This document shows, piece after piece, positions 3,157 to 25,207 of a DNA stretch of 64,000 nt. Below the pieces are notes generated by a model that was not told the DNA's origin, searched no databases, and saw only the letters and a program-made list of their open reading frames with translations. Source of the DNA: Betaproteobacteria bacterium RIFCSPLOWO2_12_FULL_62_58 (GTDB lineage: Bacteria; Pseudomonadota; Gammaproteobacteria; Burkholderiales; SG8-41). Made by a program: the position numbers and the translations under genes. The stretch spans positions 2,762-66,761 of the forward strand of contig MERI01000231.1 in the NCBI GenBank assembly GCA_001772005.1, given 5' to 3'. The first letter of the stretch is position 1. Each line of letters starts with the position of its first letter.

Positions 3157-3184
3157 TTCTTTCTCCACGTCCCGTAGTGGGTCA

Positions 3185-3228
3185 TGCGACGCCGACGATA
3201 ACCCAGGCGGGAAGTGGTCGGCGTCGCA
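3185..3228 (-). promoter_or_regulatory. Perfect 12-bp inverted repeat (stem-loop) between PrpD paralogs 2 and 1
   Basis: TGCGACGCCGAC (3185..3196) and GTCGGCGTCGCA (3217..3228) with a 20-nt loop, 23 nt downstream of the PrpD-2 stop. No U-tract. Confidence 0.4.
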
Positions 3229-3250
3229 CCGCTTGGCGTCTCCTTTTGCA

Positions 3251-4639: not shown

Positions 4640-4667
4640 CGCATTCCTCCTGTGCTCGACGACTGGT

Positions 4668-5684
4668 TCAACGCAAAGAACCCTTTTCGCTTCGGACACC
4701 CACGTCCTTCGCCAGCTTCCTGAATCGGTTGATCTCATCGGCAAGGTGTCGGCCGAAATCGGCGGGCGCGCCACCGACCGGTTCTGCTCCGTCCGCCACA
4801 AAGCGCTGGACGATTTCGGGCATGCGCACAATCTTGTTCATTTCTTCGTTCAATTTCGTTATGGCCGCATTCGGCGTGCCCGCGGGCGCAAGCACTCCAT
4901 ACCAGGTCAGAACGTGATAACCGGACACGCCGGCTTCTGCGATGGTGGGAACGTCGGGTGCTGCATTCGATCGTTTTGCGCTCGTGACGCCCAGTGCCCG
5001 CAGCCTGCCCGCTCGCCAGTGCTGAAGACCCGCTACTATGGCGGAAAAGGTGAACTGCACCTGCCCGCTGATTACCCCCGTCACAGCCGGAGAACCGCCC
5101 CGGTACGGCACGTGGTCCACCCCGATATCAGCCATGCGCTTGAACAGCTCGCCCGCCATGTGTCCGGAGCCGCCGTGTCCGCCCGAAGAAAAATTCAAAG
5201 TTCCGGGCTTGGCTTTGGCGAGCGCGATCAGGTCTTTCACTGTCCGGACGGGCAGTGACGGAGTCACCACCAGCAGAAACGGTGCCTGCCCAATCTGGAT
5301 TACAGGCGCGAAATCCTTGATCGAGTCGAACGGCAGATCGTAAAGGCTCGGGTTGATGCCAAAGCTGCTCGACACGACAAGCAACGTGTATCCATCGGGC
5401 TGGGCTTTTGCAACGATTCCCGCGCCGATCGATCCCGCCGCGCCAGAGCGGTTGTCGACGATCACCGACTGGCCTAGGGCTTCTGTAAGCTTCTGCGCAA
5501 TGAGTCGCGCAACGATATCGGTCGCGCCGCCGGGCGCCAGCCCGACCACGAAGCGCAGAGGCTTGATGGGATAGCTGTCGGCACTGGACTTCAAAGCGCT
5601 GCCGGTTTGCTGAGCTTGCACCGCAATCGATGGGGCGAGACACAGCAGCAGCGTCAGCAAAGTACTTTTAAATCGTTCGTTCAT
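4668..5684 (-). CDS. Bug-family (TctC-type) tripartite tricarboxylate transporter substrate-binding protein
   Basis: Signal peptide (LLTLLLCLAPSIAVQA) followed by the Bug signature YPIKPLRFVVGLAPGGATD. About 325 aa. Confidence 0.85.
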   Translation of the reverse strand: MNERFKSTLLTLLLCLAPSIAVQAQQTGSALKSSADSYPIKPLRFVVGLAPGGATDIVARLIAQKLTEALGQSVIVDNRSGAAGSIGAGIVAKAQPDGYTLLVVSSSFGINPSLYDLPFDSIKDFAPVIQIGQAPFLLVVTPSLPVRTVKDLIALAKAKPGTLNFSSGGHGGSGHMAGELFKRMADIGVDHVPYRGGSPAVTGVISGQVQFTFSAIVAGLQHWRAGRLRALGVTSAKRSNAAPDVPTIAEAGVSGYHVLTWYGVLAPAGTPNAAITKLNEEMNKIVRMPEIVQRFVADGAEPVGGAPADFGRHLADEINRFRKLAKDVGVRSEKGSLR

Positions 5685-5720
5685 GCTCTCCTCGCTTTAT
5701 AGCGTCATACTGGTGTAGCG

Positions 5721-5760
5721 CCGGATCCATCTTGAAATTCGAATGTCAAATTGGATCCGG
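5721..5760 (-). promoter_or_regulatory. 9-bp inverted repeat enclosing a second palindrome, between LeuD-like copy 1 and the Bug gene
   Basis: CCGGATCCA (5721..5729) and TGGATCCGG (5752..5760). The loop contains ATTCGAAT. It is followed by TCCGGA-tgag-TCCGGA. Confidence 0.35.
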
Positions 5761-5803
5761 ATGAGTCCGGACTGACGGCTGTTTGAGTTCTTGTCCGGGG
5801 CTG

Positions 5804-6316
5804 TTACGAAGCGGTCTCTGCAAGGTAGCGCTTGCGGGCGAAAGCCGCCATCCCGCCACTCTCGAAAATCGCCTCTATCGTCGGCGGATACTTCCGCAAG
5901 GTCACCGTTGCGCCGGTCGCAACGTTGCGCGCGAGCGTGCGGCGGTAGTCGAGTTCCAGTGTCGCGCCATCCTCGATGATCTTGCCGATTTCCGGCGCGA
6001 TGAAAATCGGCATCGGTAGAGCGATGCTGTTGCGCAGGAACAACCGCGACGCGGACTCGACGACGATGGCGGCGATGCCGATCTCCTTCAATACCAGCCC
6101 GGGGCGATGCGAACCGCAGCCGAAGTTGCGGCCCGCAACGATGATGTCGCCAGGCTTCACCTCTTTCGGAAACTCGGGGCGGAATGATTCGAGGGTATGC
6201 TTCTTCAGCTCCGCCATCGTCGAATAGAGGTAATAGGGATTAATGGAATCGGTATCGACGGAATCCCCGAATTTCCAGACGCGGCCCGTGATCGCGCGGT
6301 TCAGGTCAAAGCTCAT
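5804..6316 (-). CDS. Aconitase-family dehydratase small subunit (LeuD-like), copy 1
   Basis: Starts MSFDLNRAITGRVWKFGDSVDTD and contains FGCGS. The ATG at 6316 is preceded by GGAGG and overlaps the LeuC-like stop by 11 nt. The longer ORF (to 6595) is an out-of-frame extension over the upstream gene. Confidence 0.85.
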   Translation of the reverse strand: MSFDLNRAITGRVWKFGDSVDTDSINPYYLYSTMAELKKHTLESFRPEFPKEVKPGDIIVAGRNFGCGSHRPGLVLKEIGIAAIVVESASRLFLRNSIALPMPIFIAPEIGKIIEDGATLELDYRRTLARNVATGATVTLRKYPPTIEAIFESGGMAAFARKRYLAETAS

Positions 6317-7583
6317 GAAACACCTCCTTCGGATTGACGATCTCTCCCGCCACCGCCGCGGCGGTAACGGTGAGAGGGCCGCCCAGATAGATTTGCGCCT
6401 CAAGACTTCCCTTGCGCCCCTTGAAATTGCGTGTAGTGGCGGTGATGCACACCTCGCCCGCGGAAAGGAATCCGACTTTCGGCTGGCACACGCCGCAGCC
6501 CGGCGTGACGACCTGCGCGCCCGATTCGATGAGCTGCTCGATGAGACCGGTTTTGAGGCACTGCAGGTAAACCTGCTGCGAGGCTGGCGAGACAAGGAAG
6601 CGAACGCCTTTAGCCACCTTGCGCCCTTTCAGCATGCGCGCGGCGATCTCGATGTCTTCGAAACGGCCATTCGCGCAGGACCCGATCTGGGCTTGGTCGA
6701 TGCGCGTGCCTTTCACCTCGTCGACGGGCACGACGTTGCCGAACTGGTGCGGCTTTGCGACAACGAACGGCATCTCGTCGACATCCACCACAATCTCCCT
6801 CACGTATTCGGCGTCGGCGTCGGCTACAAGCGGTTCATAGGGCTTGTCGGTGCGCCCGCGCAGGAACGCGTCGGTTTTCTCGTCCGCCGGGAACATCGCG
6901 AACTTTGCGGCCACCTCGACGCCGTGCGTGGACAGGCAGGCGCGGCTGTCGATGCTCAACTGAGGAACGAGCGGGCCGGTAAACTCGATTGACATGTTCT
7001 GAGCGAAGTCGTCTCCGTATTTTCCAGCCAGATAGAGCATGATGTCCTTCGCGATGGGGTATCGGGGTTGCGTGCCTTTCAGCACGATTTTCACCGAGGA
7101 AGGAACCTGAAACCACAGCTCGCCGAAGAGCATCGCGTACATGAGATCGGGCCGGGTGATGCCCGTGGCGCCCGCATTGAGCGCGCCGTAGCCGATAGTG
7201 TGAGAATCCATCCCGACCACCAGTTCGCCGGGGCGCGCAAGACCGTAGTCGAGGATCATCTGGTGAGCGATACCCGGCTCCGCGTCGTGAAAAATATTCA
7301 CGCCGAGCCGTGACGCTTCCTTCCGGATAAGGGCGTTATCATCGGCGATGGACTGGCTCAACGCTGGCTGGTGATGGTCGATCAGGAAAAAAACCTTATC
7401 CCGGTCCCACACGCGCGGAAAGCCGTCCGTAAATCCCGCCTGCACAGCCAGGCGGTGGACGTCCATGAAATGGTAATGACACATCGCGCCGTCGATGCGG
7501 GCGTCAACGATGTCGCCCGCCTTGACCGGCTCTCGCGCCAGGTTGTGCCGCGACAGCAGCTTTTCCGCCAGCGTTTGTCCCAT
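6306..7583 (-). CDS. Aconitase-family dehydratase large subunit (LeuC-like, ~425 aa short type), copy 1
   Basis: Contains DSHT, GSCANGR and PGCGVCQ Fe-S ligand motifs. Directly upstream of the LeuD-like gene. Confidence 0.85.
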   Translation of the reverse strand: MGQTLAEKLLSRHNLAREPVKAGDIVDARIDGAMCHYHFMDVHRLAVQAGFTDGFPRVWDRDKVFFLIDHHQPALSQSIADDNALIRKEASRLGVNIFHDAEPGIAHQMILDYGLARPGELVVGMDSHTIGYGALNAGATGITRPDLMYAMLFGELWFQVPSSVKIVLKGTQPRYPIAKDIMLYLAGKYGDDFAQNMSIEFTGPLVPQLSIDSRACLSTHGVEVAAKFAMFPADEKTDAFLRGRTDKPYEPLVADADAEYVREIVVDVDEMPFVVAKPHQFGNVVPVDEVKGTRIDQAQIGSCANGRFEDIEIAARMLKGRKVAKGVRFLVSPASQQVYLQCLKTGLIEQLIESGAQVVTPGCGVCQPKVGFLSAGEVCITATTRNFKGRKGSLEAQIYLGGPLTVTAAAVAGEIVNPKEVFHEL

Positions 7584-7620
7584 GTTTCCTCCTAGTTCGA
7601 ACGACGCTGCCCCCGCGCGC

Positions 7621-8625
7621 TTAATCGATTCGCGCGCCTGAAGCTCGCACGACGGCGGCCCACTTGTCAGTCTCTCTCTGCAGGAAAGCGCGCATCTCTT
7701 CCGGCGTGCTCGTCATCGAATCCGCCCCGCGGTTCTCGTAGTACTCGCGCACGTCCGGCAGAGCCACGCTCTGCTTGATCGCAGCGTTCAGCTTGCGGAC
7801 GATGTCTTCAGGCGTGCGCGCAGGCACCACGATGCCGAACCAGTTCACCGCTTCATAGCCAGGGTAGCCCGATTCGGCGATGGTCGGCACGTCCGGCAAT
7901 GCACGCACGCGGCGACTCGACGTCACGGCGAGCGGCCTCAGTCTGCCGGAGCGAATGTGTGGTTGCAGTGGCGAGACATTGGCGAACAGTACCTGAATGC
8001 GCCCGCTGATGACGTCCGGGATTGCGAAGGCACTGCCTTTGTAGGGAACGTGCACCATGTCCACGCCGGCCCTCGACTTGAACAATTCGGTGGCGAGGTG
8101 GTTGACCGCACCGTTACCCGTCGAGCCGTAGCTGGCTTGTCCGGGCCGTTGCTTCAGGAACGCCACGAAATCCCGTACTGACTTCACGGGTAGTGACGGA
8201 TGTACCACCGCGCAGAGCGGCTCAGACCCGATCAGTGTGACGGGCGCGAAGTCGCGCGCGAGATCATACGAGAGCTTGCGATAAAGGCTCGGCGCGATCA
8301 CATGCGGTGCCGATACCATGAACAGGATGTAGCCGTCCGGCGCTGCCCTGGCCGCTATTTCCGCGCCGATGTTGCCGCCGGCACCCGGCCGGTTGTCGAT
8401 GATCAACTGCTGGCCGAGGCTGTCTGCCAGCTTCTGCGCGATCGAGCGTATCAGCAGGTCGCTCGCTCCGCCGGGTACCTGCGCGACGATGATGCGCACG
8501 GGCTTCGCCGGGTAAACCTGGCTGGCGGCCGGCAAGGCCAGGAGCAGCAGTAATGCGATCGCCGCCCGGCCCAATAACTCGAATCCCAATGATGGATTGA
8601 ACTGCCGGTACGGGAATTGTCTCAT
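7621..8625 (-). CDS. Bug-family substrate-binding protein
   Basis: Signal peptide followed by YPAKPVRIIVAQVPGGASD. Its ATG overlaps the stop of the upstream flavoprotein gene (ATGA). Confidence 0.85.
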   Translation of the reverse strand: MRQFPYRQFNPSLGFELLGRAAIALLLLLALPAASQVYPAKPVRIIVAQVPGGASDLLIRSIAQKLADSLGQQLIIDNRPGAGGNIGAEIAARAAPDGYILFMVSAPHVIAPSLYRKLSYDLARDFAPVTLIGSEPLCAVVHPSLPVKSVRDFVAFLKQRPGQASYGSTGNGAVNHLATELFKSRAGVDMVHVPYKGSAFAIPDVISGRIQVLFANVSPLQPHIRSGRLRPLAVTSSRRVRALPDVPTIAESGYPGYEAVNWFGIVVPARTPEDIVRKLNAAIKQSVALPDVREYYENRGADSMTSTPEEMRAFLQRETDKWAAVVRASGARID

Positions 8626-10154
8626 TCGGCGTGGTCTCGTTTCTTCACCGCGGTCGCTGGCTTCGTACGTGCATGGCGCGCCGCTTCCGTGCCGGCAATC
8701 CGGCCAAACACCGCGCCGGACACTAGCCCCGTGCCGCTGGGATAGTTGAAATAGAAAAGTCCGCCGACCATCTCTCCAGCCGCAAAGAGCCCGGGGACAT
8801 CGTGCCCGGCCACGCTCTGCACGGCCGCCCGGGGCGAGACGCGTACGCCGCCGAACGTGAACGTGATCCCACAGGTGATAGCGTAAGCATGAAATGGCGG
8901 AGTGTCCAGCACGTTGGCCCAGTTCGACTTCGGGATCGCGAGACCGGTCGTGCCACGACCGTCCAGGATCACCGGGTTGAATGCGACATCCTGACGGACA
9001 GCCTTATTGTATTCAGCGATTGTCTTGAGGCAGCGTTCGGCGTTCACGCCCTCAAGCTTCGTCACCAGCGCTTCCAGAGTGGGCGCTTCTGCTTTGGTGA
9101 TCTTGCGTATACGGTACTCGTCCCTGAGCAGATGGTTCACCTTCGAGTCGAAAATCTGCCAGGCGAACATGCCGGGTTGCTTGAGGATTTCGACCCCGTA
9201 CTTCGCATACGTATAGTTCCTAAAGTCGGCGCCCTCGTCGACGAAACGCTCACCGTTGGCGTTCACCATGATACCGAACGGATAGCTGTGCTTCTGGAAC
9301 AGGTCGCCAATCTCGCGCTCGCCGAAAGGTGGTGCGTTCAAGTCCCAGCCTACGGCGTGCGCGCCGGACCAGTGGCCGAACGGCATCGCCCCGACGGCAA
9401 GCGCCATCCTGATGCCATCGCCCATGTTGAAGCGGGTCCCGCGCACCTTCGCGAGGTCCCAGTTGGGGCCCAGATACCGCGCCCGCATCTCGGCGTTAGA
9501 CTCGAAGCCGCCGCAGGCCAGCACGACCGCGCCCGCTCTCCGCCGGAGCGTCTTGCCCTGCGCTTCCGCGACCACCCCGCGCACTTCGCCATTTTCATAG
9601 ATCAGTTCGGTCGCCGCGGCCTCGTACAGCACCGGAATACCGTTCTTCTTCGCTATCTTGTGCAGGCTGTCAACGAGTCCCTGCCCGGCGCCCCAAGTCG
9701 CGCCTATGAGGCCGGCGTAGAACTTGACCTTGCCGCCGACTTTCTGCGACTGACGCGCCCACATCGCATCGAACCGCACGCCTTTCGACTTCATCCATGC
9801 CAGCGTCTTCCGGCTGTTGCGCACGAACAGCTCGGTGAGGTCCGGATCGCAACGGTACTGGGTCACACGTCCCATGTCTTCAAGGAATTCCTCTTCGGTG
9901 TAAGTGCCGAAGTCGGTGTTCGCAACTTCTTCATCGGTGAGGTCCAGGACCTCGCGCACCTCCTCAACGTTCTTGAAGGCGAATCGCGTGGCGCCGCCCG
10001 TGAATGCGCTGTTGCCGCCGCACTCCGCCTCCGGCGCTCTTTCGAGCACCATGACGCTCGCGCCTGCGTCCTGAGCGGCGAACGCAGCACACATTGCTGC
10101 ATTGCCCGCGCCAACGACCACCACATCGACTTGCTGCGCGTCCTTCAATTGCAT
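8622..10154 (-). CDS. FAD-dependent dehydrogenase, succinate dehydrogenase/fumarate reductase flavoprotein superfamily, TcuA (tricarballylate dehydrogenase)-like, copy 1
   Basis: N-terminal dinucleotide fold VDVVVVGAGNAAMCAAFAAQDAGASVMVLERAP..GGNS. The ATG at 10154 is preceded by GGAGGA; the ORF extension to 10208 is unlikely. About 510 aa. Confidence 0.7.
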   Translation of the reverse strand: MQLKDAQQVDVVVVGAGNAAMCAAFAAQDAGASVMVLERAPEAECGGNSAFTGGATRFAFKNVEEVREVLDLTDEEVANTDFGTYTEEEFLEDMGRVTQYRCDPDLTELFVRNSRKTLAWMKSKGVRFDAMWARQSQKVGGKVKFYAGLIGATWGAGQGLVDSLHKIAKKNGIPVLYEAAATELIYENGEVRGVVAEAQGKTLRRRAGAVVLACGGFESNAEMRARYLGPNWDLAKVRGTRFNMGDGIRMALAVGAMPFGHWSGAHAVGWDLNAPPFGEREIGDLFQKHSYPFGIMVNANGERFVDEGADFRNYTYAKYGVEILKQPGMFAWQIFDSKVNHLLRDEYRIRKITKAEAPTLEALVTKLEGVNAERCLKTIAEYNKAVRQDVAFNPVILDGRGTTGLAIPKSNWANVLDTPPFHAYAITCGITFTFGGVRVSPRAAVQSVAGHDVPGLFAAGEMVGGLFYFNYPSGTGLVSGAVFGRIAGTEAARHARTKPATAVKKRDHAE

Positions 10155-10371
10155 GCTTCCTCCAGTGTCCCTGTACGTAGCCGCGCTTGCCTGGCGGAGC
10201 GGGCACATGGGTGTCTAGTACCTTATCAAGCGCTCGCTCCGAGATAAAAGAACTTGTCTTGTGGCCAGTATGCCTCGTTGTTATCCTGACCGCCGACATG
10301 ACGCTGCAGCAACTTCGTTTTCTCTCAACATCCAGCAAATGCTCAATTCACACGCAGCGACTTGACCGGCT

Positions 10372-11481
10372 TCAGGCACCCGCCCTGACAATGACTTCAT
10401 CCTCCTCGACGGCGAAGGTGTGCGGAAACCCTTCCGACGCCCATTCCATGTACTGCACCGCGTCCGCAAAACGGGGATCTTGCCGGCGCAATGGCTCGGG
10501 CCGCAGCTGCTTGTCGATCAGAACCGGCAGGAATGAAGTCTTCTCGACGCCGTCGGGAGTAACCACCGCCTTCGCGATGAGGCTGCGTTTGGCGTCCTCC
10601 CCATAGGGAAGATGGGGATAGTCCGGGTCCAGCCTGACCCCGTAGCGCTTCTCAAACACCTCGGCCTCACGCGGCGTCTTCGCGCGGGATGACATGATGA
10701 AATTGCTCAGGCTGTAAAAGCATGCCTTGCCGTCGTAGACGCCGATCGCCTTTGGTACATGCGCATGATGGCCGAGGATCAGATCGGCGCCGGCCGCGAA
10801 TGCGGCGCGTGCCGCCGTCTTCTGGTAGTCGGCGATCATGCGCGGAATGAAATGGATGCCCCAGTGCAGCGACACGATTACCGCGTTCGCCGACCTCTTC
10901 GCGGCCGCGATGTCGGCGCGCATGTTCTCGAGGTCTTCCTCATACGGTACGGTGATTACGCGCGGCGGCACTCCGGCCTGATACTCGACCGCCTCATAGT
11001 AGGTGTGGGCCCGGAGCGGCGCGATGCCTGCCTTCTTCGGCCCCGCGGCATAGCCTTCGCGCAGGACCGAGCAGTAGGCGAGGAAAGCGACGCGGACCCC
11101 GTTGCCGTTTATGAAGGCCGGCTGTCTGGCCTCTTCGAGATTGCGGCCGGCGCCCACCGGGACGATACCCTTCCTGCGGAAGAGGTCGATCGAATCGAGC
11201 AGCGCGTCCTCCCCCCAGTCCATGGCATGGTTGCTCGCCACAGACACCACGTCGAAGCGGCAATCGTCGAATACCGATGCCATATGGGGTTTCACGCGGC
11301 TGTGTTCCCCGCCCGAGTGCACTTGCAGCGCACCACGCTCCGAGTACACCCTTTCGACTTGGGCAAACCGGAGATCGGCGGCCTGAAGGGTAGCGCGCAC
11401 GTGTGCGCCATAGCCCTCGGCGGGCTCGTGTATGGGGCCAATGTCGCCGCAAGCGAGGAGAACAAGACTCTCGCCAGTCAT
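10372..11481 (-). CDS. CapA/PGA_cap-family metallophosphoesterase-like protein
   Basis: ACGD..., SVASNHAMDWG, GAGRNLEEA and LHWG motifs are typical of CapA-family proteins. No signal peptide is evident. Confidence 0.65.
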   Translation of the reverse strand: MTGESLVLLACGDIGPIHEPAEGYGAHVRATLQAADLRFAQVERVYSERGALQVHSGGEHSRVKPHMASVFDDCRFDVVSVASNHAMDWGEDALLDSIDLFRRKGIVPVGAGRNLEEARQPAFINGNGVRVAFLAYCSVLREGYAAGPKKAGIAPLRAHTYYEAVEYQAGVPPRVITVPYEEDLENMRADIAAAKRSANAVIVSLHWGIHFIPRMIADYQKTAARAAFAAGADLILGHHAHVPKAIGVYDGKACFYSLSNFIMSSRAKTPREAEVFEKRYGVRLDPDYPHLPYGEDAKRSLIAKAVVTPDGVEKTSFLPVLIDKQLRPEPLRRQDPRFADAVQYMEWASEGFPHTFAVEEDEVIVRAGA

Positions 11482-11505
11482 GAAGAAAATGCCTTTCCCG
11501 GTGCT

Positions 11506-12483
11506 TTACAGCTTCATACCGGACGAGGCGACGAGCTTCGTCCACTTTTCGATTTCATGCGTGATCGTCTCCCTGAACTGCGTCGGCGTACTGGGTGCCG
11601 ATTCGATGCCGTCCGCAGCGAGCTTCTCCCGGATGTCAGGTGACCCGAGAATCTGCGCGATCTGGTGATTGATGTGCTGGACGATGGCTGGAGGCGTGTG
11701 TGCCGGCGCGACGAGACCGTACCAGCCGACGACGCTGTAACCGGTCAGGCCGGCCTCCGCGATGGCCGGCAGATCGGGCAACAAGCCGGACCGCTTGGAA
11801 CTCGTTACGCCGAGCGCTTTCAACCTGCGGGCTTTTACCTGCGGCATCGCAGAAATCGCGCTCGCGAGGAGCAGCTGCACCTGCCCGCTCATCAGATCGA
11901 TCATCGCTTGGCCGGCACCTTTGTAGGGCACGTGAACCATGTCGACTTTCGCCACGTCCTTGAACAGCTCCATGCCGAGATGTGCCGAAGAGCCCGTGCC
12001 GGAGGAGCCGTAGTTCAGCGCGCCCGGTTTGCTCTTTGCGAGCGCGATGAGCTCCTTCACCGACTTCACGGGCAGCGACGGATGCGCGAGCAGCACGTAA
12101 GGTTGAGAGGTCATCTGCGTAATCGGCGCGAACGTTGCCTGTATGTCGTAGGGCACGCGGGTGACGAGCGCAGCGTTGGTGAGTTGACTGCCGGACACGA
12201 CGAGCAGGGTATAGCCATCCGGGACAGCTTTTGCCGCAAGCTCCATCGCGATCGTTCCGCCCGCGCCCGCGCGGTTGTCCGTGACCACCGGCTGACCCCA
12301 CCGCTCCGTCAGCTTCTGCCCCACAGCACGCGACAGAATATCGCTGCCCCCGCCGGGTGCAAAACCCACCAGCAGCCGCACCGGTTTTATGGGATAGCGC
12401 GGCTCCGTTTGTGCATTCGCGCCGAACGGCAGCAGCATGCAGACAAAGCCTGCGCACCAACCGGCAATCATTCTAATGCCCAT
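11506..12483 (-). CDS. Bug-family substrate-binding protein
   Basis: Signal peptide followed by YPIKPVRLLVGFAPGGGSD. Confidence 0.85.
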   Translation of the reverse strand: MGIRMIAGWCAGFVCMLLPFGANAQTEPRYPIKPVRLLVGFAPGGGSDILSRAVGQKLTERWGQPVVTDNRAGAGGTIAMELAAKAVPDGYTLLVVSGSQLTNAALVTRVPYDIQATFAPITQMTSQPYVLLAHPSLPVKSVKELIALAKSKPGALNYGSSGTGSSAHLGMELFKDVAKVDMVHVPYKGAGQAMIDLMSGQVQLLLASAISAMPQVKARRLKALGVTSSKRSGLLPDLPAIAEAGLTGYSVVGWYGLVAPAHTPPAIVQHINHQIAQILGSPDIREKLAADGIESAPSTPTQFRETITHEIEKWTKLVASSGMKL

Positions 12484-12544
12484 TTTCCCTCCTCCTCGAA
12501 TCGTTCGATCTGAAGCAAAGCGAATCGTCTTGTGCCCGTTCCGG

Positions 12545-13063
12545 TCACGACGCGAGAGCCTGCTCGCGCAGGTAGCGCTCGCGCGCGAACTCGGGAAGCC
12601 CGCCGGCTGCGAAGATCCGTTCGATAAGCGGCGGAAACCTGCGGAGCTCGATGCTCGCGCCGCTCACCGGATTTCGCACGACCCCGGCGGGATAGTCGAC
12701 TTCCAGCGTTTCGCCGTCGTGCACGACCCCCGTTATGCCCGGGGCCATGAAAATCGGGATTGCCCGCGCGATGCTGTTGCGAAGGAACAACCGCGCCACC
12801 GATTCGGCGACGATCGCCGCGACGCCGACTTCGCGCAGGACGAGTCCCGGACGGCTCGACCCGCAGCCGAAATTGCGCCCGGCGACGAGGATGTCGCCGG
12901 GGCGGACTTCCTTCGGGAATTCGGGCCGGTACGCTTCCATCGTGTGCTGCTTCAACTCATCCATCGTCGGATACCGGTAATACGGATTGATCGCATCGGT
13001 CTCGATGGAGTCGCCGAATTTCCAGACGCGGCCGCGAATCCTGCGGTTCAGATCAAATGCCAT
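12545..13063 (-). CDS. Aconitase-family dehydratase small subunit (LeuD-like), copy 2
   Basis: Starts MAFDLNRRIRGRVWKFGDSIETD and contains FGCGS. The ATG at 13063 overlaps the stop of the LeuC-like gene. Paralog of 5804..6316. Confidence 0.85.
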   Translation of the reverse strand: MAFDLNRRIRGRVWKFGDSIETDAINPYYRYPTMDELKQHTMEAYRPEFPKEVRPGDILVAGRNFGCGSSRPGLVLREVGVAAIVAESVARLFLRNSIARAIPIFMAPGITGVVHDGETLEVDYPAGVVRNPVSGASIELRRFPPLIERIFAAGGLPEFARERYLREQALAS

Positions 13064-14333
13064 CGAACACCTCTTTCGGATTGACGATTTCGCCGGCGAC
13101 TGCGGCCGCTGCGACAGTAAGCGGTCCGGCAAGATAGATGTCGGCTTTAAGGCTGCCTTTGCGCCCCTTGAAATTGCGCGTGGTGGCGGTGATGCATACC
13201 TCGCCATCCGAGAGAAAGCCGACTTTCGGCTGGCATACACCGCATCCCGGCGTGACAACTTGTGCGCCGGCTTCGAGCAGGGTTTCGACGAGGCCCGCTT
13301 TGACGCACTGCAGATATACCTGCTGTGAGGCTGGTGAAATGAGAAAGCGCACACCTTTCGCGACTTTACGACCCTTGAGTACGCGCGCCGCGATCTCGAT
13401 GTCTTCGAAGCGGCCGTTCGCACACGAGCCGATAATCGCTTGCTGGATTCGCTGACCGGCGAGTTCGTCCACCGGCGCGACGTTTCCGAACTGATGCGGC
13501 CTGGCGACGACGAATGGCATGTCCTCGATGTCGAGTACGATCTCCTTCTCGTACTCGGCGTCCGGATCGGCCGCGATCGGCTCGTAACGCTTGTCGGTGC
13601 GGCCCCGCAAAAACTCGCGCGTCGTCTCGTCGAAAACGAACATCGCCAACTTCGCACCGACCTCGACCCCGTGCGCCGCGAGGCACATGCGGCTGTCGAT
13701 CGACAGTTGCGGCACGAGCGAACCGTCGTACTCCATCGACATGTTGCCGGCGAAGTCGTCGCCGTACCGACCAGCGAGGTAAAGAACGATGTCCTTGGCG
13801 ATCGGGTAGTTGGGTTGATGCCCGTTCAGCACGACCTTGATCGACTGCGGCACCTGGAACCACAGCTCGCCGAAGAGCAGCACGTAGAACATATCGGCGC
13901 GCGTGATGCCGGTCCCGCCCGCATTGAGCGCGCCATAGCTGATCGTGTGCGAATCGTTGCCCACCACCAACTCACCGGGCCGCATGAGGCCGTAATCGGC
14001 CATCATCTGGTGCGAGATGCCGGGCTCGGAATCATGGAAACTTCGAATACCGAGCCGTTCCACTTCCCTGCGGATGAGCGCGTTGTCGTCGGCCTGCTTT
14101 TGCGAGAGCGTCGGTTGGTGATGATCGACCAGTACGAATATCCGCTCAGGGTCCCACACGCGCGGTAGCCCTTCGTTGAAACCGGCCTGCAGCGCGAGAT
14201 CGTGCATCGGCTCCGAGGCATGGTAATGAACCATCGCGCCGTCAATTTGCGCTTCGATTATGTCGCCGGCGCGCACCGGTTTACCGGCAAGGTTATGCCC
14301 GGAAAATAATTTCTCGGCCATCGTCTGTGCCAT
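13053..14333 (-). CDS. Aconitase-family dehydratase large subunit (LeuC-like), copy 2
   Basis: Collinear with 6306..7583, sharing the GSCANGRFEDIEIAA and PGCGVCQPKVGFLS motifs. Confidence 0.85.
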   Translation of the reverse strand: MAQTMAEKLFSGHNLAGKPVRAGDIIEAQIDGAMVHYHASEPMHDLALQAGFNEGLPRVWDPERIFVLVDHHQPTLSQKQADDNALIRREVERLGIRSFHDSEPGISHQMMADYGLMRPGELVVGNDSHTISYGALNAGGTGITRADMFYVLLFGELWFQVPQSIKVVLNGHQPNYPIAKDIVLYLAGRYGDDFAGNMSMEYDGSLVPQLSIDSRMCLAAHGVEVGAKLAMFVFDETTREFLRGRTDKRYEPIAADPDAEYEKEIVLDIEDMPFVVARPHQFGNVAPVDELAGQRIQQAIIGSCANGRFEDIEIAARVLKGRKVAKGVRFLISPASQQVYLQCVKAGLVETLLEAGAQVVTPGCGVCQPKVGFLSDGEVCITATTRNFKGRKGSLKADIYLAGPLTVAAAAVAGEIVNPKEVFDGI

Positions 14334-14353
14334 GTTGTTTCTCTCCGTGCGGA

Positions 14354-15070
14354 TCAGTCCCGGGTCTCGGGAAAGAGCTGCTTCAGCCGTTCTTTCTGCG
14401 CGCTCCGGACATGACCTCGCGCGGCCTCTTCAGCTGCGTCCGGGTCGCGCTTCCGTATCGCAGCCAGGAGTTCACCGTGTTCGGCCAGGGCGCCCTTTGC
14501 GCGGTGTGGGAGCAGCATCTGGCTCTTCCCGAGCAGCCACATCGAATCGTTTACCGCGCTCAGGCTCTTTTCGAGGTAGCGGTTGTGCGCGCCGCGGTGC
14601 ACGGCCTCGTGAAAGAGCCGGTTGTGCCGCGCCAGCTCTTCGAAATTGCCCTGCAGGCGCTCCTCGCGCTTCACAAGTTCCTCGAGTTCCATGACCTCAA
14701 GGTCGGAGGCATGGCGCGCGCAGAGGCGCGCTGCCGTACCTTCGAGCACCTCGCGCATCACGTAGAGTTCGAGCATAGCCTGGCGGCTCAAGGAAGCGAC
14801 TACAAGACCGGTTCGCGGCTCCAAGGTGAGCATGCCGTCGCTCTCGAGCCGGCGTAACGCCTCGCGGACCGGTGTACGGCTCACCTTGAGCCATTCCGCG
14901 ACTTCGATTTCCATGATGCGCTGACCTGGCCGCAAAGCACCCTGCTGGATCGCTTCACGCATCTTCTGATACACGAGCTCGCTGAGCGAGGCGTAATGTT
15001 GCTCCTTCTTCGCGGCAGCCGCTGAGACGCGCGCGACAGACTTTCGAAGCAGTGCTGTAGTCGAGCCCAT
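14354..15070 (-). CDS. GntR-family transcriptional regulator (FadR/FCD type)
   Basis: N-terminal wHTH (LRPGQRIMEIEVAEWLKVSRTPVREALRRLESDGML) plus a helical C-terminal FCD-like domain. Confidence 0.85.
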   Translation of the reverse strand: MGSTTALLRKSVARVSAAAAKKEQHYASLSELVYQKMREAIQQGALRPGQRIMEIEVAEWLKVSRTPVREALRRLESDGMLTLEPRTGLVVASLSRQAMLELYVMREVLEGTAARLCARHASDLEVMELEELVKREERLQGNFEELARHNRLFHEAVHRGAHNRYLEKSLSAVNDSMWLLGKSQMLLPHRAKGALAEHGELLAAIRKRDPDAAEEAARGHVRSAQKERLKQLFPETRD

Positions 15071-15088
15071 GAATCCGCTCCTATGTAT

Positions 15089-16600
15089 TTACAAGGCTGC
15101 GCGCAGAGGCGATCTCTGTGCTGCATGCGCAGCCGCTTCCCGCCCGGCGATGCGCCCAAACACGGACCCGGCCATCAAGCCCGTGCTCCCTGGATAGTTG
15201 AAGTAATACAGTCCGCCCACGAGCTCGCCCGCCGCATAAAGCCCAGGAATCACCGCATCCTCCATGTCAAGCACATGAGTACCGGTGTCGATCTTGAGGC
15301 CACCAAACGTAAAGGTGATGCCGCATCCGACGGAATACGCCTCGAACGGCGCGACTTCAATCGGATTCGCCCAGTTGCTCTTGTTCACCTCGAGCCCCAG
15401 GGTGCAGCGGCCGTCCCTTACGTTCGGATCGAACGGCACGTCGCGTCTGACGGCGGCGTTGAATTGCCGGACAGTGTCCAGGAAGTTCCGCCCATGCACA
15501 TCCTGCATGCGGTCCGCAAGTTCCTCGAGCGTGTTCGCGGTGACTTTCGTTGCGCCGCGCAACTTGTATTCGTCGCGCAGCAGCGGCTTCACCTGTTGAT
15601 CGAAAATCTGCCACGCGAAGCTGCCCGGCTGCTGCAGCACGACGCGGCCGTACTTGGCGTAAGTGTAATTGCGGAAATCGGCGCCTTCGTCGACGAAGCG
15701 CTTGCCGTCGGCGTTCACCATGATGCCGAACGGATAGCTGTGACGGTAACCCGCGTGCGGATGCTCGACGTCGCCGTAATCCGGCGCGTAACGTTCCCAA
15801 GCCACCGAGTGGCAACCTGACCACTGCCCGTAGGATTGCGCGCCAATGTTGAGCGCCATCTGGATGCCGTCGCCGGTGTTGTAGCGCGTGCCTCGTACTT
15901 TGGCCATGTCCCAGCCAGGACCGAGGTAGCGCGTGCGCATTTCGCGGTTCGCCTCGAAGCCGCCGCTTGCGAGCACCACAGTCCTGGCGCGCACCACCTC
16001 CTCGACGCCGTTCGCGATGACGCGCACGCCTTCCACGCCATTCGATCCGCGGACGAGATTCCTGGCCTGCGTGTGGTAACGCACCGTGATACCGTGCTTG
16101 TCCGCGGCCTTGTAAAGCAGATCGACCAGTCCGCGCCCGCCGCCGTTCGCATAGATGACCACGCCGCCAAAGAACTTGAAACGGCCATTGACGTTGTAGG
16201 CTTGCCGACCGTAGTTGGCCATGAACTTGACGCCACGCTCGCGCATCCAGTGCACGGTATCGGTGCTGTTGCGCACGATCGTCTCGGCGAGATCGGGATC
16301 GATGTAATATTGGGTGATGCGGCCGAGATCATCCAGATAGTCTTCAGCCGTGTATTGGCCGAAGTCGGTCCGTCCGATTTCCTCGTCGGTAAGATCCGGA
16401 ACGATCTTCTTGATGTCGTCCGCGCCGTGATGCACGATGCGAAAGCCGCCGCCGGTAAACGCGCTGTTGCCGCCGCGCTTGTCCTCCGGCGCCCGTTCGA
16501 GCACGAGCACGCTCGCGCCCTGTTCCTGCGCCGACAGCGCGGCACAGAACGCGGCATTTCCACCGCCGACCACGACTACGTCATAGGGCTGATCGCTCAT
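15089..16600 (-). CDS. FAD-dependent dehydrogenase, TcuA-like, copy 2
   Basis: YDVVVVGGGNAAFCAALSAQEQGASVLVLERAP..GGNS. Collinear paralog of 8622..10154. Confidence 0.7.
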   Translation of the reverse strand: MSDQPYDVVVVGGGNAAFCAALSAQEQGASVLVLERAPEDKRGGNSAFTGGGFRIVHHGADDIKKIVPDLTDEEIGRTDFGQYTAEDYLDDLGRITQYYIDPDLAETIVRNSTDTVHWMRERGVKFMANYGRQAYNVNGRFKFFGGVVIYANGGGRGLVDLLYKAADKHGITVRYHTQARNLVRGSNGVEGVRVIANGVEEVVRARTVVLASGGFEANREMRTRYLGPGWDMAKVRGTRYNTGDGIQMALNIGAQSYGQWSGCHSVAWERYAPDYGDVEHPHAGYRHSYPFGIMVNADGKRFVDEGADFRNYTYAKYGRVVLQQPGSFAWQIFDQQVKPLLRDEYKLRGATKVTANTLEELADRMQDVHGRNFLDTVRQFNAAVRRDVPFDPNVRDGRCTLGLEVNKSNWANPIEVAPFEAYSVGCGITFTFGGLKIDTGTHVLDMEDAVIPGLYAAGELVGGLYYFNYPGSTGLMAGSVFGRIAGREAAAHAAQRSPLRAAL

Positions 16601-16689
16601 TATTGTTCTCCATTACCCTGCACGCCCGATGTGTTTGCCCGTACCTGAGATCTTGAACGAAACCCGAGGAAGAACTAGGCGGAATTCAT

Positions 16690-16719
16690 GTGTATACACG
16701 ATAATACATTACAATACAT
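16690..16719. promoter_or_regulatory. Candidate GntR-type operator (GTGTATACAC) plus tandem AATACAT repeats in a divergent promoter region
   Basis: A perfect 10-bp palindrome at 16690..16699 fits the GT-N-AC core of GntR operators. AATACAT occurs at 16703 and 16713. It lies between divergent genes 15089..16600 (-) and 16790..17731 (+). Confidence 0.4.
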
Positions 16720-16789
16720 GGCGTGACCAATCGTTCCCGTGAACAGGCGTCGACCGTTACGACGCCAAACGGCGGAGAAAAGCGCAACA

Positions 16790-17731
16790 ATGAATACTGA
16801 ATCGAAAGGTGTGCGCCTGCGCAAACTAATCAACCGCAAGGAAAAGGTATTAGTGGTGCTTCACCCGCCCACTGCCGCTCACGGACGCCTCATGGAGCAC
16901 GCGGGTTGCGAGGCGGGATTCGTTGGCACCGGAGGTGTCGTCGGTGCGTACACCGGGCTCGCCGACGTGGGCGCGCTTACCATGATGGAATGCGTGCAGA
17001 TCGCGGGCTGGATTGCGCAAGCGGTGAATTTTCCAATCATAATGGACGGTGACACCGGCCACGGCGGCATCATGGCCGTGCGGCGCATGGTGCGCGAGTG
17101 CATACGTGCGGGCATCGCCGGCGTGCGCATCGATGATCAGCCAATCGAAGGCAAGCGCCGGACCCAGACCGCGGGCATGGAAGTCGTGCCGATCGAGCAG
17201 GCGATCGCGCGCTATCGCGCCGCCGTCGACATGAAAAACGAGCTCGATCCCGGTTTCGTCATCATGGCGCAGTGCTACGCCCGGGATGCAGCGAACGGCG
17301 ATCTCGAGGACACGATCACCCGGCTCAAAGCGTATCGGGAGATTGCCGGCGTGGACTGGGTGCAGCTCGAATCACCGCACTCGGTGGACGAGATCAAACG
17401 CGCACGGGCCGCGGTGCAAGGTCCGTTTTCTTTCATGAAGGGAAAGCTGCCCCGCTACCTCGACCTGGATGGGCACCTCGCGCTTGGCGTCAATATCGCG
17501 TGGTATCCGGGCTTCACGCACCACGTTACATGGGCTGCTCTTTGGGATTTCATGCAGGACTTCCAAGCGCGCGGCATCACAGCGTGGGAGGAGTTCCTCG
17601 CGAGCCGCAAGGACCGTCCTTATCCGGAGCCTACGGTCGGGCCAGAAGGCGAAGGTGCGGACAAGCAGCGCGAGATCGAGGAGCGCTATCGCTCGCCGGG
17701 AGCGCTCAAGAAATTCCGAGATGGGCGATGA
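16790..17731 (+). CDS. Isocitrate lyase / PEP mutase superfamily protein (non-canonical active-site loop)
   Basis: DGDTGHGG and GVRIDDQ motifs. ATG at 16790 (the ORF opens at GTG 16739). The K-[KR]-C-G-H loop is replaced by GKRRTQTAG. Confidence 0.75.
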   Translation: MNTESKGVRLRKLINRKEKVLVVLHPPTAAHGRLMEHAGCEAGFVGTGGVVGAYTGLADVGALTMMECVQIAGWIAQAVNFPIIMDGDTGHGGIMAVRRMVRECIRAGIAGVRIDDQPIEGKRRTQTAGMEVVPIEQAIARYRAAVDMKNELDPGFVIMAQCYARDAANGDLEDTITRLKAYREIAGVDWVQLESPHSVDEIKRARAAVQGPFSFMKGKLPRYLDLDGHLALGVNIAWYPGFTHHVTWAALWDFMQDFQARGITAWEEFLASRKDRPYPEPTVGPEGEGADKQREIEERYRSPGALKKFRDGR

Positions 17732-18304: not shown

Positions 18305-19657
18305 CTAGCCTTTCAGCGCGGTCGCTGTCATCAATTCCCGAATATCGGGCAGGTTGTCTACAGATATGATCATGGCGAGGAGGTGATCAGCCTTGCCGGC
18401 GCTCATCGCGCAGACCGCGCAGCTCAGAAACTTCTCCTGATGCTCACGCTCGGGTATTGGCCACGAGCGGGAGCCTGGGCCCTTGTCCACGCGCATGGAA
18501 AATTCCCCGCGCGGTGTCTTTACGGCGATGTCGGTGTAGCCGACAGTGCCCGAATAGACCGCCGTATCAGCGACGCGGTAGCGTTCGACTTTCTTCATCA
18601 TCGCCCGCGCCGCCGGCCGCTGTACCGCCTTGTCCGTGAAACTTTGCAGATTGAGCCTACCGTCGATTACCAATGCCGCAACCGGATATTGCGCGCTAAA
18701 CTTTCCCTCGAGGCCTGTTTGCGGATCGTTATAGACCAGTGGCTCGTCTGCCCCGGGCGGAAAGCCGATCCGCACGGCTTCGATTTCATCCGGTTTAATT
18801 TGGTGCGCGGCGATTAGCTCGAGCAGGCCGCCCAGCCCCCGGTGACTGCAGTAACAGCACGGCCAGCGCTTGTAATTCATGCCGGGCTGCACAAGATCCC
18901 AGGGGCTGCCGAGACGCTGGACGTATTGCCCTGCGTTCTTCTCCTCCGCGCCGTATAAACGCTGGAAGCTGTCGTTGCCGTCGAAGATCGCCTCGTTTGC
19001 GGTGAAGCCGCGGCGCGCCATGTCCTCGGCCAGGATGGCGCTGCGTGCCGCATGCCCCGACTGGAAGGACTTCGACATCGTGCCGAAGTTGCGGAGGATG
19101 CCGCCGCACTCGGCCGCAGCAATCCCCCAAGCGTTGCGCAAGACCTGCTCGCTATCTCCGCGTAAGTGCGCCGCGACTGCCGTCGCAGCGAAGATGCCAA
19201 CCGTCGCCGTGTTGTGCCAGCCTTTCAGATAATGGCTGTCGCCAAAGATGCGCCCCAGCTTGCCCGCGACTTCTATCCCAATCGCATACGCGAGCAGCAC
19301 TTGCTTACCTGATGCGCCCATCTGTTCACCCACGGCGAGCGCAACGGGTAACGTGCTTGCGCTGGCGTGACCGCGCAAAGTCGAGAGCGTATCGTCGAAG
19401 TCGAGGACGTGCGTAGCGATCGCGTTGGCAAACGCAGCTTCGGCTGGCGCGGTCGAGAAGTTTGCGCCCCAAACGCTTGCGACTGGCCGCGCGCCCATCT
19501 CCGCGACATGCTCGCGCGCGAGCCGCGCGGCCGGTTCAGTGACTCCTGCCAGAGCACATCCAAGAGTATCCATGAGGGCGACCTTGGCCGCTGCCTGCAC
19601 TTCGCCCGGAAGCGCCTTGGTTTCGCAAACGAAGCGCGCCAGCTGCTGCGTCAGCAC
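18305..19657 (-). CDS. MmgE/PrpD family protein (paralog 3)
   Basis: LARFVCETKALPGEVQAAAKVALMDTLGCALAG and a family-wide layout. GTG start. Confidence 0.85.
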   Translation of the reverse strand: MLTQQLARFVCETKALPGEVQAAAKVALMDTLGCALAGVTEPAARLAREHVAEMGARPVASVWGANFSTAPAEAAFANAIATHVLDFDDTLSTLRGHASASTLPVALAVGEQMGASGKQVLLAYAIGIEVAGKLGRIFGDSHYLKGWHNTATVGIFAATAVAAHLRGDSEQVLRNAWGIAAAECGGILRNFGTMSKSFQSGHAARSAILAEDMARRGFTANEAIFDGNDSFQRLYGAEEKNAGQYVQRLGSPWDLVQPGMNYKRWPCCYCSHRGLGGLLELIAAHQIKPDEIEAVRIGFPPGADEPLVYNDPQTGLEGKFSAQYPVAALVIDGRLNLQSFTDKAVQRPAARAMMKKVERYRVADTAVYSGTVGYTDIAVKTPRGEFSMRVDKGPGSRSWPIPEREHQEKFLSCAVCAMSAGKADHLLAMIISVDNLPDIRELMTATALKG

Positions 19658-19681
19658 GATCTGCTCACTGTTGAGACCCGT

Positions 19682-21376: not shown

Positions 21377-21395
21377 GGCATCTGCGGCAACATGG

Positions 21396-22469: not shown

Positions 22470-22477
22470 AAGCGACC

Positions 22478-23689: not shown

Positions 23690-23733
23690 GGGGTGGCTAT
23701 CCTTTATCGTCTTTTTTTCGTCGTTATGGCGCT

Positions 23734-24738: not shown

Positions 24739-25203
24739 TCATTGCGTGGGCGGCACAAAGGGATACGGCACAGGCTCGCCGTCACGATAGGGCAGCGCGA
24801 TCACCGCCGTGCCGGGGGTCGATTCCTTCTCCTGCTCGTTAAGAATGCCGAGCTCGACCTCCACGAGCCCATATGATTTCCACTCCCGTTTCGCGGCGAC
24901 GCGGCCCCACACCCTGAGCGTCTCGTTCTCCAGATTCATGGCGCGAAACTGGAAGCTCACCTTCCATACCCATCCGTCGTCGCCAGCCCACTCGCGGAGC
25001 AGCTGCATGACGAACTGCTGCTTCAATGTGCCGTTCACAAGAATGCCGGGAAGCTTGTCATGCTCCATCGCAAACGGTTTGTCGTAATGGATCTTGTGCC
25101 AATTCTCCATCGCCGCGGACCAGCGCATGAGATGCGCACTGGTGAGAGGCCCTTTCGGGAGCGGTCCCAGCATATCTCCCACGTTCACGGACTCGTAACG
25201 CAT
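24739..25203 (-). CDS. MaoC-like (hot-dog) dehydratase, C-terminal-type subunit
   Basis: 154 aa from ATG 25203. HYDKPFAMEHDKLPGILVNG resembles the MaoC hydratase motif region. Confidence 0.7.
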   Translation of the reverse strand: MRYESVNVGDMLGPLPKGPLTSAHLMRWSAAMENWHKIHYDKPFAMEHDKLPGILVNGTLKQQFVMQLLREWAGDDGWVWKVSFQFRAMNLENETLRVWGRVAAKREWKSYGLVEVELGILNEQEKESTPGTAVIALPYRDGEPVPYPFVPPTQ

Positions 25204-25207
25204 CACC

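Follow-up and report, generated by a model that had tools for sequence, protein, structure and literature searches.

Gene content of the locus

We analysed a window of 64 kb (64 000 nucleotides of contig MERI01000231.1, from Betaproteobacteria bacterium RIFCSPLOWO2_12_FULL_62_58; all coordinates below are positions within this window), and describe here a gene cluster that contains two sets, A and B, of genes for a TcuA-like flavin adenine dinucleotide (FAD) flavoprotein and for the LeuC-like and LeuD-like subunits of an aconitase-type hydro-lyase. Both sets lie on the minus strand and are collinear, with the order TcuA, one inserted gene, LeuC, LeuD. Between A and B, the flavoproteins share 56% of their residues (558 bits), the LeuC-like proteins 76% (679 bits) and the LeuD-like proteins 66% (E 1e-89). 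These similarities are far above chance; the two sets are paralogous. Metagenome contigs that match the window stem from groundwater-type samples, and the homologues carry the names Betaproteobacteria or Burkholderiales. The features of the cluster, in which ICL/PEP mutase stands for isocitrate lyase/phosphoenolpyruvate mutase, are as follows.

15089..16600, minus strand: TcuA-like FAD flavoprotein B, 503 amino acids (aa), first gene of module B; PF00890, 153 bits
14354..15070, minus strand: GntR/FCD-family regulator, module B; PF00392 and PF07729
13053..14333, minus strand: LeuC-like Fe-S hydro-lyase large subunit B, 426 aa; PF00330, 268 bits
12545..13063, minus strand: LeuD-like small subunit B, 172 aa; TIGR02087, 147 bits
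11506..12483, minus strand: Bug/TctC periplasmic carboxylate-binding protein, module B; PF03401, 248 bits
10372..11481, minus strand: PGA_cap/CapA-family (metallophosphatase-fold) protein, module B; PF09587, 191 bits
16790..17731, plus strand: divergent ICL/PEP-mutase-superfamily protein (ICL-like protein), 313 aa, module B; PF13714, 98 bits
16690..16699, strand not applicable: palindrome GTGTATACAC, candidate GntR operator, in the divergent promoter region of TcuA_B and the ICL-like gene
8622..10154, minus strand: TcuA-like FAD flavoprotein A, 510 aa, first gene of module A; PF00890, 158 bits
7621..8625, minus strand: Bug/TctC binding protein (Bug_2), module A; PF03401, 257 bits
6306..7583, minus strand: LeuC-like large subunit A, 425 aa; PF00330, 258 bits
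5804..6316, minus strand: LeuD-like small subunit A, 170 aa; PF00694, and TIGR02087, 134 bits
4668..5684, minus strand: Bug/TctC binding protein (Bug_1), module A; PF03401, 239 bits
3251..4639, minus strand: MmgE/PrpD-family protein PrpD_2, about 462 aa, predicted partner of TcuA_A; PF03972 and PF19305
1684..3168, minus strand: MmgE/PrpD-family protein PrpD_1, 494 aa, predicted partner of module B; orthologues at 600-770 bits

The genes of both modules are closely spaced. Module B extends from 16600 to 10372, and a gap of 217 bp separates it from module A, which extends from 10154 to 1684. The start of Bug_2 (7621-8625) overlaps the TcuA_A stop by 4 nt, and PrpD_2 starts at a TTG codon with an AGGAGG Shine-Dalgarno sequence.

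A first-pass annotation of this DNA had reported the two collinear paralogous sets with interleaved Bug genes, a GntR regulator and a divergent ICL/PEP-mutase gene. All open reading frames (ORFs) of the two sets were recovered at the same positions on the minus strand, Pfam and NCBIfam agree on their families, and each of the interleaved genes has its Pfam match. It turns out, however, that the unit had been drawn too narrowly, for it lacked the PGA_cap gene (10372-11481) and the two PrpD genes (1684-3168 and 3251-4639); the conserved functional unit is 1684-17731. Furthermore, the start given for the ICL-like gene (16739) is that of the longest ORF, whereas gene callers place it at 16790.

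Family placement of the flavoproteins

Both flavoproteins exceed the cut-off of the TcuA equivalog model NF006130 (369 bits), with 577.4 bits for A and 575.9 bits for B, compared with 792 bits for Salmonella TcuA. PF00890 (FAD_binding_2 fold) covers A and B over their full length, and a GxGxxA motif is N-terminal. The KstD models give only 141-154 bits against a cut-off of 789, and the flavocytochrome c and NadB models fall far under their cut-offs. When the active-site residues are mapped onto Shewanella flavocytochrome c3 (Fcc3), A, B, Salmonella TcuA and 90 relatives all retain His365 and have Thr in place of His504 (GITFT) and Tyr in place of Arg544/545. Model scores and active-site residues together rule out both a KstD-type and a fumarate-reductase identity, and the profile check that the first-pass annotation had proposed between TcuA and other FAD_binding_2 clades comes out in favour of TcuA. 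Based on the scores with NF006130 and TIGR02485, and on the Fcc3-mapped residues shared with Salmonella TcuA, A and B are TcuA-family enzymes of a distinct clade.

Absence of TcuB and candidate electron acceptor

A phmmer search of the whole window with Salmonella TcuB as query (E<=1e-5) returned nothing, in agreement with the first reading of the locus, and no TcuB was found in 91 non-canonical related loci (82 searched by phmmer and nine by tblastn). The tblastn search does work, since it picks up the TcuB of Methylobacterium nodulans and that of Comamonas endophytica (48-60% identity). In both of these organisms, as in Salmonella (by annotation), tcuB is directly downstream of the canonical tcuA; our set of canonical loci with TcuB consists of L086, L094 and L096. 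The Comamonas locus, TcuR-TcuA-TcuB-Bug, establishes that the canonical system also occurs in Burkholderiales, and the flavoprotein clade of the window thus appears to be a separate, TcuB-independent one. A CCG/Fer4 protein encoded 9 kb from an A-type orthologue (L090) was considered as a TcuB, and is not a TcuB homologue.

In Burkholderia sp. Ax-1724, the genes for the two subunits of an electron-transfer flavoprotein (ETF) form part of the cluster (TcuA-GntR-LeuC-LeuD-Bug-EtfB-EtfA-TctB-TctA), and EtfB/EtfA are also found inside or beside the cluster in a Herbaspirillum metagenome-assembled genome (MAG) and on a Bradyrhizobium plasmid. These loci are the sole positive pointer to an electron acceptor, and hint at ETF.

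Plasmid p53363 of Bradyrhizobium guangxiense (L088, 8288-17270) carries a TcuA-like gene (57% identical) that is divergent from etfBA and is followed by genes for an SsuA/NrtA-type ABC transporter, a CoA ester lyase, a CoA transferase and a sulfate-exporter-family protein. The substrate of this flavoprotein may be sulfonated or otherwise not a tricarboxylate.

Conserved linkage and the two modules

A genome scan with flavoprotein B yielded 79 loci at 62-93% identity. Linkage was counted in the 40 orthologous loci that have about 66% identity or more and at least 5 kb on both sides; related loci were annotated using the window's own proteins. LeuC and LeuD are present together in 30 of the 40, and the ICL-like gene in 26, every time with LeuC. 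A PrpD-family gene likewise occurs in 26 loci, GntR in 18, and PGA_cap in 13, typically straight after the ICL-like gene. In most orthologous loci, the gene after LeuD or PGA_cap is a Bug gene. The full order GntR-LeuC-LeuD-TcuA-ICL-PGA_cap-Bug-PrpD is seen in at least 11 loci. An alphaproteobacterial variant contains TcuA, Bug, more divergent LeuDC, the ICL-like gene and PrpD, together with an ABC transporter and an enolase-superfamily protein. Cultured bacteria that carry the cluster include Burkholderia sp. Ax-1724 (L009) and Shinella lacus CPCC 100929 (L040). The linkage of flavoprotein, LeuCD and ICL-like protein is not due to chance. Because the flavoprotein, an aconitase-type hydro-lyase and the ICL-like protein have been kept together across many genomes, we can soundly infer a shared pathway, as the first-pass annotation had done from this locus by itself.

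Flavoprotein A has orthologues of its own, with up to 94% identity. One of them (L100) lies in a LysR-controlled operon with the order TcuA (88% identical to A), LeuC (87%), LeuD (87%), Bug (64% to Bug_1) and PrpD (81% to PrpD_2), and in two other loci (L091 and L101) Bug genes and a PrpD_2 orthologue come after the flavoprotein gene, and LeuCD is missing. The PrpD_2 orthologues beside TcuA_A orthologues in these three loci are 77-83% identical to PrpD_2. PrpD_1 orthologues, for their part, end the conserved cluster in 26 loci. In the window, all of module A (TcuA_A-Bug_2-LeuCD_A-Bug_1-PrpD_2) sits within module B, flanked by PGA_cap and PrpD_1. Since module A orthologues recur on their own, the window contains two distinct orthologous modules, each pairing a flavoprotein with a cognate PrpD-family partner. 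The duplication originally proposed is correct as regards paralogy; a simple local duplication, on the other hand, does not account for two separate orthologous modules, one inside the other.

In the wider clade, L092 and L093 encode a genuine aconitase AcnA (TIGR01341, 1143 bits against a cut-off of 945), the gene of which overlaps the stop codon of the flavoprotein gene; these flavoproteins are about 70% identical to A. A Haladaptatus homologue is found in a TctC-TcuA-TctB-TctA-PrpF locus, and a Halorussus homologue comes after PrpD and a cupin gene. These neighbours (LeuCD, AcnA, PrpF and PrpD) all handle aconitate-type enoates or substituted succinates, and it is mainly for this reason that we expect the flavoprotein product to be an aconitate-like 2-substituted butenedioate.

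Two further observations concern the surroundings of the flavoprotein genes. In the betaproteobacterial MAG RH-23may17-68 (contigs CANJQI01..., a subset of L023-L071), at least seven separate contigs carry a TcuA-like paralogue with differing Bug or PrpD neighbours, which indicates a large paralogue expansion of the family. Near A-type flavoproteins in L090, L093 and L100, PrpD and Bug genes repeatedly adjoin small ORFs of the UGSC family (PF24696) and a larger UGSC protein.

LeuC-like and LeuD-like subunits

The LeuC-like proteins A and B score 425 and 434 bits with NF001614 (cut-off 385), and B scores 428 bits with TIGR01343 (cut-off 386); the LeuD-like proteins A and B reach 134 and 147 bits with the LeuD/DmdB subfamily model TIGR02087 (cut-off 109). 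In contrast, the LeuC equivalog TIGR00170 is missed by a wide distance (169-191 bits, with 191 for B, against 560), as is the LeuD equivalog TIGR00171 (at most 29 bits against 116), and neither leuA nor leuB is present in the window. Both LeuC copies retain the Fe-S ligands Cys303, Cys363 and Cys366 in the motifs GSCANG and PGCGVC. The closest solved structures of the pairs are the isopropylmalate/citramalate isomerase and the homoaconitase of Methanocaldococcus jannaschii, with the isomerase structure 4KP1 for LeuC_B (E 2e-93) and 3VBA for LeuD_B (E 3e-38). These comparisons identify the pairs as archaeal-type two-subunit hydro-lyases and not housekeeping leucine enzymes, which is the outcome of the profile check suggested in the first-pass annotation.

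The LeuD specificity loop reads YYRY in B and YYLY in A, compared with YLRT in the M. jannaschii homoaconitase and YLVY in the isopropylmalate isomerase. We considered this loop as a predictor of a carboxylate versus an alkyl side chain, and dropped it, because the residue that is Arg in B and Leu in A varies (R/Q/L/K/H) among orthologues from the same cluster; the loop thus fixes no substrate.

MmgE/PrpD-family and CapA-like proteins

Members of the MmgE/PrpD family, which include 2-methylcitrate dehydratase, cis-aconitate decarboxylase, IDS epimerase and methylsuccinate isomerase, act on substrates that share a succinate backbone (PMC12290011). The closest solved structure to PrpD_1 is the IDS epimerase 2HP0 (E 4e-32). 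At the epimerase residue set (H85, D88, H99, Y145, H150, K198 and K266 in 2HP0 numbering) the residues of PrpD_1 are H D H M F R K. His85, Asp88, His99 and Lys266 are therefore kept, and in 24 of 24 orthologues the second base Tyr145 is replaced by M, I or V, His150 by Phe and K198 by R. PrpD_2, with R D H R D K K at the same positions, has the 2-methylcitrate-dehydratase-like motif IRxLDFND...GHPSD, and is closest to the solved structure 5MUX. Neither PrpD_1 nor PrpD_2 reaches the cut-off of a PrpD equivalog model. The PGA_cap protein has a single solved relative, 8GQ9 (E 1e-15), and its top NCBIfam match is the MslH epimerase model, far under the cut-off.

The complete two-base epimerase set (H D H Y H K K) is found only in a third protein, PrpD_3 (18305-19657), which lies outside the modules. 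PrpD_3 was ruled out as the PrpD of the cluster, the conserved partner being the PrpD_1 orthologue.

ICL-like protein

The ICL-like protein has the PEP_mutase/ICL TIM-barrel domain with an invariant metal site, DGDTGHGG. It scores 116 bits with the prpB model TIGR02317 (cut-off 354) and 42 bits with the ICL model TIGR01346 (cut-off 276); its best match is methylisocitrate lyase (92 bits), and it matches the dimethylmalate lyase 3FA3 at 58 bits and the oxaloacetate decarboxylase PA4872 at 55 bits. The lyase loop K(K/R)CGH, which reads KRCGH in the methylisocitrate lyase 3EOO and KKCGH in petal death protein, is replaced by GKRRTQ in the window and by GKR(R/K)T(Q/G/D) in 40 of 40 orthologues. 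The first-pass annotation had assigned the cleavage step to this enzyme; with the general-acid Cys gone from it and from all orthologues, ICL-type cleavage is not supported. The mean pLDDT of an AlphaFold2 model built from 25 close homologues is 56, a quality that does not allow a fold search.

Two kinds of chemistry come into consideration. By analogy with Cys-less branches such as PA4872, the protein might decarboxylate or hydrolyse an alpha-oxo acid. Alternatively, an invariant Cys in the motif QCYARDA of the ICL-like orthologues could be the acid/base of a lyase with a relocated catalytic residue.

Candidate operator

The window has a single copy of the palindrome GTGTATACAC (16690-16699). 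It lies in the stretch that separates TcuA_B from the ICL-like gene, and a minus-strand promoter-like -35/-10 pair (16729-16701) immediately precedes it. There are seven exact copies in 1.32 Mb of related loci, compared with about 1.3 expected, and every one of these lies at most 131 bp upstream of the GntR or TcuA-like gene of a cluster. It is plausible that GTGTATACAC is the operator of the FCD-type GntR regulator. A terminator-like hairpin follows PrpD_1 on the minus strand (1545-1521). The counts from the promoter and terminator scans are not above shuffled expectation, and single sites of this kind are merely suggestive.

Proposed pathway and alternative readings

With moderate confidence, we regard the 1.7-17.7 kb region as two paralogous catabolic modules for tricarballylate-like polycarboxylates, that is, C2-substituted succinates. 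Gene content, family placement, conserved linkage, the lack of TcuB and the loss of the lyase Cys are observations; the order and direction of the reactions, the electron acceptor and the substrate class we infer as follows. A Bug (TctC-type) periplasmic protein would bind the acid, and the cytoplasmic TcuA-family FAD enzyme would desaturate its succinyl moiety to an aconitate-like 2-substituted butenedioate. The archaeal-type LeuC/LeuD [4Fe-4S] hydro-lyase would then hydrate or isomerise this enoate to a hydroxy acid, and the cognate MmgE/PrpD protein may act on these succinate-backbone intermediates too, either as another (de)hydratase or as a stereo-isomerase. Flavoprotein electrons would leave without TcuB, most plausibly via ETF to the quinone pool. 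In module B, which is probably repressed by the GntR/FCD regulator through the GTGTATACAC operator, the downstream steps would fall to the ICL/PEP-mutase-superfamily enzyme and the CapA-like protein, by C-C cleavage or by decarboxylation of an alpha-oxo acid. Of the oxidise-hydrate-cleave route originally suggested for this locus, the oxidation and hydration steps, as a conserved and TcuB-independent route, are well supported by comparative genomics, whereas the ICL-type cleavage step is not supported.

Several points weigh against the proposed pathway. The flavoproteins are only about 35% identical to the TcuA of Salmonella and E. coli, the sole characterised one, and 33-37% identical to canonical TcuA proteins, and miss the TIGR02485 cut-off of 372.55 with 265.8 bits for A and 267.9 bits for B, compared with 687 for Salmonella TcuA. 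About a quarter of the orthologous loci are without LeuCD, and the LeuD loop residue changes from one orthologue to the next. ETF genes accompany only three to four of 82 loci and, like TctA and TctB genes, are found nowhere in the window, so that ETF is a tentative choice of acceptor. The GKRRTQ loop and the missing Cys leave the end of the pathway unexplained, and the roles of PGA_cap, PrpD_1 and PrpD_2 are guesses. A literature search found no experimental work on the TcuB-less TcuA-like clade or on the gene cluster.

The end of the pathway is also where an alternative enters that we consider rather unlikely, in which the same front end leads to a back end of the oxidise-hydrate-oxidise-decarboxylate type. 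Here the hydroxy acid would be oxidised to a 3-substituted oxaloacetate and decarboxylated by the Cys-less ICL-like enzyme, so that the whole becomes a substituted copy of the route from succinate through fumarate, malate and oxaloacetate to pyruvate. PA4872 decarboxylates both oxaloacetate and 3-methyloxaloacetate, and a Cys-less loop with a Mg site fits the enolate-stabilising (alpha-oxo-acid) branches of the superfamily better than the lyases; the ICL-like protein, in which the Cys loop is absent from 40 of 40 orthologues and the Mg site is kept, conforms to this description. In L100, moreover, the operon orthologous to module A is followed at a distance of 1 kb by a GMC oxidoreductase gene and, directly after it, the gene of a close PA4872 homologue (11736-14158; 214 bits, E 1.5e-62). 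However, the ICL-like protein itself is distant from PA4872 and nearer to methylisocitrate lyase, no hydroxy-acid dehydrogenase is conserved in module B, and the QCYARDA Cys could serve as a relocated acid/base.

The front end can be read differently as well. If A and B were plain tricarballylate dehydrogenases, with TcuB elsewhere in the genome and with unrelated neighbours, the NF006130 scores and the TcuA names carried by all database homologues would be as expected, and so would the translational coupling to AcnA of clade members about 70% identical to A, since cis-aconitate would be the product. We nevertheless regard ordinary tricarballylate utilisation as improbable: TcuB adjoins TcuA in every canonical locus analysed and in 0 of 91 loci of this clade, Comamonas shows the canonical arrangement within the Burkholderiales themselves, and the TIGR02485 cut-off is missed. 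At least seven paralogues in one MAG, with different Bug neighbours, argue for diversified substrates, and unrelated neighbours leave the conserved order with LeuCD, ICL-like and PrpD genes unexplained. The flavoproteins might instead work as soluble reductases of an aconitate-like enoate formed when LeuCD or PrpD dehydrates a hydroxy acid, and their closest solved structures, soluble fumarate reductases and urocanate reductase (E 4e-36 to 4e-32), do act reductively. This is very improbable, given that the only characterised TcuA-family member is a dehydrogenase (PMC10468695), that a Pfam search finds no cytochrome or other donor domain in A or B, and that the ETF genes of some loci and the catabolic context (uptake proteins and a GntR repressor) fit oxidation. 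Finally, we give scarcely any credence to the LeuCD-like pairs being housekeeping or back-up isopropylmalate isomerases that are clustered by accident. They are members of the aconitase/isopropylmalate isomerase family, with an isopropylmalate/citramalate isomerase as the closest structure, but their equivalog scores are those of non-members for both subunits, leuA and leuB are not nearby, two copies sit in one catabolic cluster, and LeuCD accompanies the flavoprotein in three quarters (30/40) of the loci.

Other features of the window

PrpD_3 belongs to a minus-strand group of genes at 18305-26968, where it lies upstream of genes for GGT, CobW, an acyl-CoA dehydrogenase, an HMGL-like lyase and a family III CoA-transferase, and of two MaoC-like hydratase ORFs. 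This gene set, with its HMGL-type lyase, resembles the itaconate/methylsuccinate degradation cluster (PMC12290011). The whole window contains about 15 Bug/TctC ORFs and eight full-length MmgE/PrpD-family ORFs, often paired. Its 29000-64000 part is dense in catabolic cassettes, with cupins, amidohydrolases, short-chain dehydrogenases/reductases, a thiamine pyrophosphate enzyme, a BKACE enzyme and IclR regulators. G+C contents of 0.52-0.57 at 30001-38000 and 48001-62000, compared with about 0.60-0.65 elsewhere, suggest a mosaic origin for parts of this island.

Comparison with known systems

One of the closest known systems is the TcuR-TcuA-TcuB-TcuC system of Salmonella enterica, with which the two modules share the NF006130 family and the same active-site substitutions relative to fumarate reductases. 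The overall logic is also the same: there, a carboxylate is imported and undergoes desaturation to an aconitate, which is open to hydration by aconitase-type enzymes. The window differs in having neither TcuB nor a TcuC of the major facilitator superfamily, the place of the latter being taken by binding proteins of the Bug/tripartite tricarboxylate transporter type, and in having a GntR instead of a LysR regulator. It also adds LeuCD-like, PrpD-family, ICL-like and CapA-like genes, and its flavoproteins are set apart by their low identity and their TIGR02485 scores.

The back end of the methylcitrate cycle (PrpD, AcnB or AcnD/PrpF, and PrpB) brings the same three superfamilies side by side: MmgE/PrpD, aconitase and ICL/PEP mutase act there on substituted tricarboxylates via a cis-enoate. 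In contrast to that cycle, the window has no methylcitrate synthase, and the enoate would come from a flavin dehydrogenase. Its aconitase is of the two-subunit archaeal LeuCD type, and its PrpB-like protein falls far short of the TIGR02317 cut-off and has no catalytic Cys. In the nicotinate fermentation of Eubacterium barkeri, the LeuCD-type enzyme DmdAB hydrates a substituted maleate and Dml, of the ICL/PEP-mutase family, acts on the product. We liken the window to this DmdAB/Dml pair and to the LeuCD-like maleate hydratase HbzIJ by description; the LeuD proteins of the window share the LeuD/DmdB subfamily TIGR02087. This situation is different in that no flavoprotein catalyses a first step there, and the Aspergillus niger dimethylmalate lyase 3FA3, a weak match to the ICL-like protein, has the Cys that the latter lacks.

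PrpD_1 can further be compared with IDS epimerase and with the isomerase that interconverts (S)- and (R)-methylsuccinate (PMC12290011). It is nearest to the epimerase and keeps four of its residues (H85, D88, H99 and K266), but is without Tyr145 and His150, while PrpD_2 is 2-methylcitrate-dehydratase-like. PA4872 resembles the ICL-like protein in being a Cys-less superfamily member, and a close homologue of it lies near the module A orthologue in L100. Apart from the low score of the match, the gating loop is different, with LLPAQFG in PA4872 and GKRRTQ in the window.

Significance

Thousands of proteins of this clade have been named 'tricarballylate dehydrogenase TcuA' automatically in the databases. 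This name is probably too specific, because the clade lacks the TcuB partner that the characterised enzyme needs and has a different conserved gene context. It is possible, though doubtful, that the TcuB-independent clade represents a widespread and unrecognised family of aerobic pathways for substituted succinates in Burkholderiales, Alphaproteobacteria and haloarchaea, with electron flow from flavoprotein to ETF, catabolic archaeal-type LeuCD, co-evolving PrpD partners and a new reaction of the Cys-less ICL-like protein. If so, the substrates might be, for example, alkyl- or carboxyalkyl-succinates or tricarballylate analogues, and the Cys-less ICL/PEP-mutase enzyme and the CapA-fold protein would perform a reaction new to the superfamily.

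TcuB-less modules would overturn no principle. The identity of the substrate, however, would assign functions to a recurrent Bug-linked cluster of groundwater and soil Betaproteobacteria, and would give archaeal-type LeuCD enzymes a catabolic role in bacteria. Work on the substrate would also show how a soluble dehydrogenase of the Frd family is re-oxidised without TcuB, and would define a Cys-less branch of the ICL/PEP-mutase superfamily and two uncharacterised MmgE/PrpD subfamilies.

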